DNA from: a virus
Lineage: Duplodnaviria > Heunggongvirae > Uroviricota > Caudoviricetes
Reading direction: 5' to 3' (one strand)
Virus record (IMG/VR): IMGVR_UViG_2529292920_000012
Length of the DNA stretch: 4,082 nt
Part shown: positions 1 through 4,081 of the stretch, piece by piece
Numbering within the stretch: the stretch's first letter is position 1
Layout of the letters: each line of letters begins with the position of its first letter
Translations under genes and position numbers: made by a program
The notes under the pieces: generated by a model
What the model was told of the DNA's origin: nothing
Seen by the model: only the letters and a program-made list of their open reading frames with translations
Database searches by the model: none

Positions 1-1
1 G

Positions 2-361
2 ATACAGCAACAGATGAAAACACTGTCGCGTCACTCAGATACGGCAAAAGCGTTCGCATACCTGCTGAAACAGTGGGACGCACTGAACGTGTACTGCAGT
101 AATGGCTGGGTGGAAATCGACAACAACATCGCAGAGAACGCCTTACGGGGAGTGGCCGTAGGCCGGAAAAACTGGATGTTCGCGGGTTCCGACAGCGGTG
201 GTGAACATGCGGCGGTGTTGTACTCGCTGATCGGCACATGCCGTCTGAACAATGTGGAGCCAGAAAAGTGGCTGCGTTACGTCATTGAACATATCCAGGA
301 CTGGCCGGCAAACCGGGTACGCGATCTGTTGCCCTGGAAAGTTGATCTGAGCTCTCAGTAA
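2..361 (+). CDS. tnpC: IS66-family transposase (TnpC/orf3 type), C-terminal 119 codons; 5' end lies outside the window
   Basis: The frame is open from base 2 with no upstream stop, and the stop codon TAA is at 359-361. The translation ...DNNIAENALRGVAVGRKNWMFAGSDSGGEHAAVLYSLIGTCRLNNVEPEKWLRYVIEHIQDWPANRVRDLLPWKV matches the conserved C-terminal signature of IS66 transposases (GRKNWLFAGS ... YSLI ... LLPW). The ATG at 14 is internal, not the true start. Confidence 0.9.
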   Translation: MQQQMKTLSRHSDTAKAFAYLLKQWDALNVYCSNGWVEIDNNIAENALRGVAVGRKNWMFAGSDSGGEHAAVLYSLIGTCRLNNVEPEKWLRYVIEHIQDWPANRVRDLLPWKVDLSSQ

Positions 362-371
362 ATATCAATAC

Positions 372-391
372 GGTTCTGACGAGTCGCTTAC
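372..391. repeat. Putative terminal inverted repeat (right end) of the IS66-family element
   Basis: Plus strand ggttctgacgagtcgcttac; reverse complement GTAAGCGACTCGTCAGAACC. The partner repeat is outside the window, so the exact boundary is uncertain by a few bp. Confidence 0.55.
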
Positions 392-983
392 TTTTCTTGT
401 CAGTTTCTGTTGATGCATAATCGCTGAAGTCTTTCAGGATTTGTTCGCAGTCAACCGATGGAGATGTCTGGTTGGTATTTTCTGGTGATGGTTTGTTATC
501 TGATGCTGGGATTGCCCATCCCGGCAGCGATGGAGGGAGCCAGTAAAATCCTGTTCCATCCTTGAGTTTTGCCCTGTGCCATCCCTGCTTTTTATCGAGA
601 GATGTTTGTGCGAAACCTTCCTCAAGGTTATACAGATACCGACCGATTCCCCACTGAACGGCAGCGCGCTTCATTGCACCGGAACGACCACCTTTTACGG
701 CTTCTACCTGCGTGTTTTCAGCAGCATCCCATTTGGTTACCCATTCGGAATCAATCCTGATTGATATGCCGCATTCAACGCCTCCGTTGTTGGGAATATC
801 TCGGTATTCATTGCGCCATCCTGCTTTGCCGCAAACATCGTCAAGGCGTTTCATGATTGCCCTGTTCGTGACATAAGCCAGCACCATAGCCCACACCTTG
901 CCATCGCGTGTTTTACCGCTTTGCTGTATTCGCCATTCGATATCTTCAGGGCTGAATGGCTCATCGAATTTATTCAAATCCAT
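392..983 (-). pseudogene. Rad52-like phage single-strand annealing protein (recombinase) gene, 3'-truncated by the IS66-family insertion
   Basis: ATG at 983-981 preceded by GAGGTG (988-993). The translation contains YVTNRAIMKRLDDVCGKAGWRNEY and EAVKGGRSGAMKRAAVQWGIGRYLY, which resemble the Rad52 N-terminal annealing-domain motifs as I recall them. The 233-codon ORF in the track (282-983) is a chimera: codon 198 onward (S-K-R-L-V-R...) is encoded by the IS terminal repeat and the antisense strand of the transposase 3' end. Confidence 0.6.
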
Positions 984-991
984 AATTCACC

Positions 992-1162
992 TCAGAATGG
1001 ACATGGACCAAGGAAATAACGCTGATTTAATACTTCGGTCTTTGCCGCATTTAAAAAGACGCGAACACCTTCACGATCTCCCTTCTGGCGATACATTAAC
1101 GCCTGCTGCGTGTACATGCGTCTCTGTAACTTGCTCTCCTTCACTGTGGTTGCAAGTGACAT
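992..1162 (-). CDS. Hypothetical small protein, 56 aa (MSLATTVKESKLQRRMYTQQALMYRQKGDREGVRVFLNAAKTEVLNQRYFLGPCPF); below the ORF-track size cut-off
   Basis: ATG at 1162-1160 with a strong Shine-Dalgarno AAGGAG (complement of 1169-1174) and a 6-nt spacer. Its TGA stop (994-992) lies inside the Shine-Dalgarno sequence of the downstream recombinase gene, a typical phage coupling arrangement. I do not recognise the protein. Confidence 0.5.
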   Translation of the reverse strand: MSLATTVKESKLQRRMYTQQALMYRQKGDREGVRVFLNAAKTEVLNQRYFLGPCPF

Positions 1163-1241
1163 GAATATCTCCTTCGTTACCGATTAATTCTTTCATCTGA
1201 CGAATGAATTCTTCGTCTGACCAGTTATCTGTAAAACTCAT
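1071..1241 (-). CDS. Hypothetical small protein, 56 aa (MSFTDNWSDEEFIRQMKELIGNEGDIH...); overlaps the 992-1162 ORF in another frame
   Basis: Its ATG (1241-1239) overlaps the kil-like stop codon in an ATGA coupling motif. The track ORF 1071-1256 starts 15 nt further upstream with no ribosome-binding site, so I prefer 1241. The last ~90 nt overlap the better-supported 992-1162 ORF, so the true 3' extent is doubtful. Confidence 0.3.
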   Translation of the reverse strand: MSFTDNWSDEEFIRQMKELIGNEGDIHVTCNHSEGEQVTETHVHAAGVNVSPEGRS

Positions 1242-1390
1242 TTCCTGCGGTACCACGGAAGGTTGATAGCTGATTTCATCGCTTTATTTGCTTCAAGCCA
1301 CATTTTTGAATCACCAATAAATCTGGCTATTACTGCTTTGTTTTGTGCCGCACGAAGCATCTGGTGATTAATGGCTATTTCATTGCGCAT
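1238..1390 (-). CDS. kil: Kil-like small protein (host cell-division inhibitor family), 50 aa
   Basis: ATG at 1390-1388 with GAGG 7 nt upstream. Translation MRNEIAINHQMLRAAQNKAVIARFIGDSKMWLEANKAMKSAINLPWYRRK. The segment ARFIGDSKMW...A.K resembles the central motif of lambda Kil as I remember it, and the gene sits immediately after cIII as in lambda. Assignment is from memory plus synteny. Confidence 0.5.
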   Translation of the reverse strand: MRNEIAINHQMLRAAQNKAVIARFIGDSKMWLEANKAMKSAINLPWYRRK

Positions 1391-1506
1391 AATAAGACCT
1401 CAACTCTTTTCCATCCGTCACGTAATTTACGGGTGATTCGTTCAAGTAAAGATTCATTTAGTTGGAAGGCACCCATGCGAGCGCCTCCCGCGATTACGTA
1501 AATCAT
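1375..1506 (-). CDS. cIII: CIII-like protein (lambdoid FtsH-inhibitor / lysogeny regulator), 43 aa
   Basis: ATG at 1506-1504 with AAGGA 7 nt upstream. Translation MIYVIAGGARMGAFQLNESLLERITRKLRDGWKRVEVLLCAMK. The core ESLLERITRKLRDGWKR is identical to the amphipathic-helix core of lambda CIII as I recall it; the N-terminus (IAG...) is also similar, while the C-terminus differs and is shorter. Confidence 0.75.
   Translation of the reverse strand: MIYVIAGGARMGAFQLNESLLERITRKLRDGWKRVEVLLCAMK

Positions 1507-1530: not shown

Positions 1531-4081
<2,551 letters not shown>

Follow-up and report, generated by a model that had tools for sequence, protein, structure and literature searches.

The 233-residue reading frame at positions 282–983 of the DNA analysed here is very probably an insertion sequence (IS)-generated pseudogene remnant of a known family, a case of ordinary prophage decay. 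It joins the first 197 codons of a Rad52/Sak-type annealing protein (SSAP) gene from a lambdoid prophage to the antisense strand of an IS66-family element. The window, 4082 bp in length, is the whole of contig AIEZ01000044.1 from a draft assembly (GCA_000249135.2, 2012) of Escherichia coli DEC1E. Its 5' end lies inside an IS66-family copy, its 3' end lies one base beyond a copy of IS100, and a 1.7-kb piece of a minus-strand lambdoid pL operon sits between the two elements. Both ends of the contig are collapsed repeats, so the prophage sequence is readable only between them.

Features of the window

1–391, plus strand: right end of an IS66-family (ISCro1-like) element, from Pfam matches (DDE_Tnp_IS66 and DDE_Tnp_IS66_C) and copies ending at 391
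14–361, plus strand: ORF holding the 3' end of tnpC of the IS66-family element, stop codon at 359–361
385–391, plus strand: IS66-family terminal sequence CGCTTAC
282–983, minus strand: chimeric 233-aa ORF, made of 197 native SSAP codons, 1 straddling codon, 35 IS-derived codons and a stop
392–983, minus strand: native part of the Rad52/Sak-type SSAP gene, residues 1–197 of 235, from DNA and protein identity
576–974, minus strand: core of the annealing domain, residues 4–136
453–506, minus strand: low-complexity linker, residues 160–177, predicted to be disordered from pLDDT and variability among homologues
408–449, minus strand: sole remaining helix of the C-terminal domain (CTD), residues 179–192, from the helices of the model and the junction after residue 197
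282–391, minus strand: IS-derived tail, residues 198–233, SKRLVRTVLIFTESSDQLSRATDRVPGLPASPGYVQ, antisense to the 3' end of tnpC
992–1162, minus strand: 56-aa ORF between kil and the SSAP gene, similar to Sf6 gp29 and HK97 gp42 (phrog_1723, E 4.5e-34)
1238–1390, minus strand: kil (PF06301 Lambda_Kil, E 1.7e-20)
1375–1506, minus strand: cIII (PF02061 Lambda_CIII, E 7e-14)
1531–2127, minus strand: Sf6 gp33-like gene ('TolA'), its C-terminal 198 codons and stop, cut by IS100
2128–4081, plus strand: complete IS100 (IS21 family), from Pfam matches (rve and IstB_IS21) and alignment to IS100 copies
2214–3236, plus strand: istA of IS100
3233–4016, plus strand: istB of IS100, frameshifted

The insertion junction and the chimeric reading frame

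An earlier reading of this DNA, made from the sequence alone, had described a minus-strand ORF of 233 aa running from 983 to 282 and an IS66-family insertion between bases 391 and 392. The ORF is present as claimed, with an ATG start and the motifs GKAGW and KRAAVQWGIGRYLY, and the insertion is backed by the ends of other IS copies, by DNA alignment and by protein alignment. We searched 5426 complete E. coli genomes by Megablast with window 282–1200. ISCro1/IS66 copies, in the thousands, match 282–391, many of them at 100%, and all end at 391. On the other side, 392–1200 is matched in 313 of the 5426 genomes at no more than 98.8% identity, with the gene annotated as 'Rad52/Rad22 family DNA repair protein', and none of the 5426 spans the 391/392 junction. 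Scanning one genome per species for exact 32-mers gave no other instance of the same junction. The exact chimeric protein was found on one contig only, that of E. coli DEC1E, and is deposited as EHU19132.1 / WP_000365294.1.

Aligned with two intact loci, the window agrees with them down to base 392 and diverges exactly between ...CGCTTAC and TTTTCTTG; from base 392 onward, DNA identity to intact prophage and phage genes is 98.8–98.9%. Membership of the element in the IS66 family follows from the matches of TnpC to PF03050 and PF13817 and from the conserved terminus at the junction. The target-site duplicate expected for such an element is 8 bp, here TTTTCTTG (window 392–399), and a simple insertion would put ...GATGAGTTTTTTCTTG, including this 8-bp duplicate, before the left IS66 end.

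The chimera is identical to intact E. coli prophage proteins through K197, save for T173 (K in the intact proteins), and is unrelated to them after that residue. Codon 198 straddles the junction (window 392–390, AGT, encoding S) and is followed by 35 pure IS codons and a stop; the earlier count of 36 IS-encoded residues after 197 native ones is thus correct. The other two frames into the IS would close after 8 and 0 codons, and the chance of 35 open codons is about 0.19–0.27. The long open tail is an unremarkable chance event. The frame does stay open, as the term 'in-frame fusion' had implied, but what it records is chance read-through in a twice-disrupted prophage fragment, with no sign of use.

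Family and fold of the annealing protein

The sequence-only reading had placed the protein in the Rad52 superfamily rather than with Redbeta or RecT and had proposed a profile search as the check. Pfam agrees with that placement: SSAP residues 4–136 match PF04098 (Rad52_Rad22) with 91.3 bits (E 7.9e-26; curated cut-off 20.3 bits) over profile positions 7–153 of 153. At E≤0.01, PF04098 is the sole Pfam family matched, and Erf (PF04404), RecT (PF03837) and Redbeta gave no profile match. A true Erf occupying the same slot in a sister prophage (L003) matches PF04404 with an E of 2e-44. P22-type Erf differs from the DEC1E SSAP in the annealing domain (PF04404 versus PF04098), although the two share their position in the operon and a homologous CTD. 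RefSeq phage records (NC_019705, NC_005344, NC_006949 and others) and PHROGs (phrog_1097) call the gene 'Erf-like ssDNA annealing protein'; in GenBank and PGAP annotations it is 'Rad52/Rad22 family'. Pfam backs the Rad52/Rad22 name; the PHROG name 'Erf-like' is a label only.

For structural comparison we used an AlphaFold2 model (mean pLDDT 82.6) of an intact homologue (P0001). The intact homologue was modelled rather than the chimera because a model guided by the alignment would force the native CTD onto the unrelated tail, and one built from the single sequence would be unreliable. The model comprises an annealing domain (residues 1–150), a disordered linker (~160–177) and a three-helix CTD (helices 179–192, 196–209 and 214–234). 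The linker has pLDDT <50 for residues 162–176 and varies in sequence and length among homologues. The annealing domain of the modelled intact protein has the Rad52-like annealing fold, a β-hairpin followed by β-β-β-α, and matches the folds of 80alpha Sak, Mgm101 and human RAD52. A PDB sequence search with the intact protein returned no SSAP, only a weak WW-domain match (E 0.1), so the link to these proteins needed the fold comparison.

The likeness to the known proteins has its limits. The Sak protein of 80alpha (PDB 8pq8 and 8qe9; PMC11846896) is DUF1071-type, comes from a phage of staphylococci (Gram-positive) and is only 10–13% identical in sequence. The C-terminal regions of human RAD52 and yeast Mgm101 are eukaryotic, with RPA and RAD51 binding, and have no relationship to the three-helix CTD of the phage protein. 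Lambda Redbeta (bet) occupies the same slot in the pL operon and likewise combines an annealing N-terminal domain with a small helical CTD that binds partners, lambda Exo and host SSB among them (PMC11611040). Redbeta nevertheless has no detectable sequence match to the DEC1E protein, and its partner is lambda Exo, in contrast to SSB and Abc2 in the Sf6/ES18-type module.

The weak PDB match coincides with residues 133–159 (window 507–587; GWHRAKLKDGTGFYWLPPSLPGWAIP), which have WW-domain-like spacing: W135 and W156 are 21 residues apart, aromatics lie at +11 to +13 and P159 is at W+3. The phmmer match is to the WW domain of Prp40 (E 0.1), and there is no Pfam match to the segment even at E≤10. 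In the model of P0001 the segment forms a small three-stranded sheet (E126–128, E136–139 and E145–149), and W148, P151, L153, P154, W156 and P159 are invariant across 34 homologues.

Natural length and loss of the C-terminal domain

The intact gene is 708 nt, encoding 235 aa, in the intact loci L001 and L002, in Sf6 and in mEpX2. Intact homologues of 235 aa comprise Sf6 gp28 and the proteins of mEpX2, HK75 and the 313 complete E. coli genomes. Among the best 120 of 5595 homologues (down to 57% identity), nearly all are 227–252 aa long, with full query coverage and a conserved CTD. A natural length of about 197 aa (197–211) is excluded by these lengths. The short database entries are not natural forms either: they are internal deletions (P0005 and P0010), a CTD swap (P0022) and singleton frameshifts (P0024 and P0092).

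Removal of the native C-terminus by the IS, as proposed from the sequence, is borne out: the protein loses 38 native residues (KLIERYQRDWQLMAGNEDAQAKCVQVMNIRVNELKQAA) and gains 36 from the IS. A 34-sequence alignment gives ten conserved CTD positions (L183, F186, A190, L199, Y203, W207, C220, R227, E230 and L231), seven of which, from L199 onward, lie past the junction and are lost. The CTD of the chimera is therefore incomplete; helices 2 and 3 are removed and helix 179–192 alone is kept. Full-length homologues retain the CTD across Enterobacterales.

The CTD also occurs outside the Rad52-type proteins. The ERF-family (PF04404) annealing protein at L003 3386–3991, in the same slot as the SSAP gene at L001 4885–5592, has a homologous CTD (BLASTP E 2e-7), and P0022 is a variant with a Rad52-type N-terminal domain and an Erf-type CTD. 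The helical CTD is a shuffled module, which suggests that the linker holds a mosaic joint and that both SSAP types have a partner in common.

The recombination module and its missing partners

The SSAP gene lies in the lambda bet position, as had been claimed, downstream of cIII and kil in the pL operon as in its relatives. In Sf6 and mEpX2 the SSAP gene has the same position, after cIII, kil and a small ORF. DNA identity over window 392–1200 is 94–99% to Sf6 gp28, mEpX2_034, mEp235, HK75 and ES18 gp49; the gene also occurs in phages N7, IME10 and ECP1, at 94–99% DNA identity. The small ORF of the window (56 aa, 992–1162) has annotated counterparts in L001, Sf6 and mEpX2. It matches no Pfam family, and it is labelled 'recombinase' in RefSeq phage records and in phrog_1723.

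In intact relatives the SSAP gene is followed directly by ssb (PF00436), then by a variable gene and then by abc2 (PF11043, anti-RecBCD protein 2). In these relatives the last residues of the phage SSB, FDDSDIPF, form the canonical acidic tail. The Sf6/ES18-type lambdoid Rec module has been described as a strand-annealing protein (SAP), SSB-1 and Abc2 (PMC12315714; Casjens et al. 2004, 2005). Sf6/ES18-type genes encode 235 aa with ssb and abc2 following, whereas in DEC1E the IS66-family element has taken the place of the last 38 codons and of the genes beyond them, and so lies directly downstream of the SSAP gene where ssb and abc2 would be. It had been suggested that a partner exonuclease gene was displaced. 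Downstream genes were indeed displaced, but the conserved partners are phage SSB and Abc2 rather than a Red-type exonuclease, and no Red-type 5'-3' exonuclease was found in the downstream region of the intact relatives examined. End processing is presumably left to host RecBCD modified by Abc2, as in P22, where this modification is established (summarised in PMC12315714).

The slot between ssb and abc2 varies among relatives, and some have no gene there. In mEpX2 (L006 1821–2369, mEpX2_032) it holds an Rv2179c-like 3'-5' exonuclease (PF16473, E 1e-73); in Sf6 it holds gene 26 (L005 1922–2401), whose product gp26 is a Cys-rich 159-aa protein with no Pfam match; and in L001 it is ~500 nt with no annotated gene.

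Proposed history and likely consequence of the insertion

The preceding comparisons point to the following history. The DEC1E lambdoid prophage would once have carried an Sf6/ES18-type module of a Rad52/Sak-type SSAP, then a phage SSB, then Abc2. An ISCro1-like IS66-family element would have inserted after SSAP codon 197, cutting off CTD helices 2 and 3 and parting the SSAP gene from ssb and abc2. A frame open by chance for 35 codons into the IS would have yielded the 233-aa chimera, and a second element, IS100, would have broken the pL operon at a point further upstream, within the gp33-like gene.

Were the chimera produced, its intact N-terminal domain would probably still support oligomerisation and the annealing of naked ssDNA. 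By analogy with Sak80alpha and Redbeta, contact with the acidic C-terminus of SSB should be lost, leaving the protein defective on SSB-coated ssDNA and hence for recombination in vivo. The idea that annealing would be kept and partner contacts lost fits published results for Sak80alpha without its CTD, which still makes rings and anneals naked oligonucleotides; on SSB-coated DNA, annealing requires both the Sak CTD and the seven C-terminal residues of the cognate SSB (PMC11846896). The Sak80alpha truncation is engineered and clean, whereas the DEC1E chimera keeps one CTD helix and gains 36 unrelated residues.

We consider it unlikely that the chimera is a working recombinase, with the N-terminal domain alone sufficient in vivo or with helix 1 and the IS tail together supporting contact with SSB, so that the cell would still draw Rad52-type annealing activity from the prophage fragment. 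The annealing domain, linker and CTD helix 1 are intact, with neither frameshift nor stop, and the annealing of naked oligonucleotides in vitro by CTD-less Sak80alpha also speaks for activity; the need for the Sak80alpha CTD on SSB-coated DNA speaks against it (PMC11846896). Also against it are the loss of seven of the ten conserved CTD positions from a domain that homologues across Enterobacterales keep, and the interruption of the operon upstream by IS100, at 2127/2128. C-terminally truncated fragments of P22 Erf, studied by Poteete and colleagues in 1983, reportedly form rings and bind DNA and are inactive in vivo.

A scan of the window for promoters and terminators found nothing above shuffled expectation, and no promoter of its own is evident before the SSAP gene. 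N-antiterminated transcription could in principle cross IS100. We infer from this context that the chimera is not expressed. IS100 upstream, no promoter above chance, partner genes at least one IS length away and occurrence on a single contig argue that the question of its activity is moot.

The second disruption and the integrity of the contig

The break made by IS100 falls exactly at the IS100 terminus, TGTCACG. The intact gp33-like protein is 322 aa and rich in Glu, Ala, Lys and Arg; its C-terminal 198 residues are left. This break has produced a second IS chimera, a 208-aa ORF (1531–2157, minus strand) that takes its GTG start, and 10 codons, from the terminal repeat of IS100. Compared with other IS100 copies, istB at 3724–3736 reads GTAACTCGGCCCCCCGCTGCTC for GTAATGGCCCCCCGCCTGCTC. 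The net +1 frameshift splits istB into ORFs 3233–3748 and 3831–4016, and it may be either a genuine mutation that inactivates the gene or, beside a C-run in a collapsed repeat, a consensus error.

Such a consensus error would lend some colour to the suspicion that a short-read assembler misjoined an IS66 repeat to the prophage contig and that the gene is really intact, as would the origin of the window, an entire 2012 draft contig with repeats at both ends. We nevertheless regard a misjoin as very unlikely. The break in the SSAP gene coincides to the base with the conserved IS66 terminus (391), the end point of every other copy, and the other break likewise falls exactly at an IS terminus; true insertions give such breaks, which makes the artefact reading weak. 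A random misjoin inside repeats, moreover, would require the IS and phage sequences to be homologous, which they are not at the junction.

Least probable of all is co-option of the truncated annealase as a dominant-negative subunit that poisons the Rad52/Sak-type rings of superinfecting lambdoid phages: Rad52-type SSAPs do function as large rings of identical subunits, and anti-phage factors that target phage recombinases are known (PMC11846896), so that, if true, an IS-generated accident would be a prophage-encoded superinfection defence, but nothing direct speaks for it, the truncated form is confined to one contig of one strain and is not conserved, and the tail is arbitrary antisense IS sequence with no promoter evident.

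Significance

The reading we favour, an IS-generated pseudogene remnant, concerns a protein family, a lambdoid Rec module and an SSAP CTD role that are already described, and IS-driven prophage decay is routine in E. coli. The sole new fact is that the deposited entry WP_000365294.1 / EHU19132.1 is an IS chimera. The entry is named as an ordinary 'Rad52/Rad22 family DNA repair protein', although the final 36 residues come from the antisense strand of an IS; users should regard it as the product of a pseudogene and leave it out when aligning CTDs. The chimera, in which the CTD has naturally come close to being deleted, could be a ready-made control for recombineering tests of this SSAP family.
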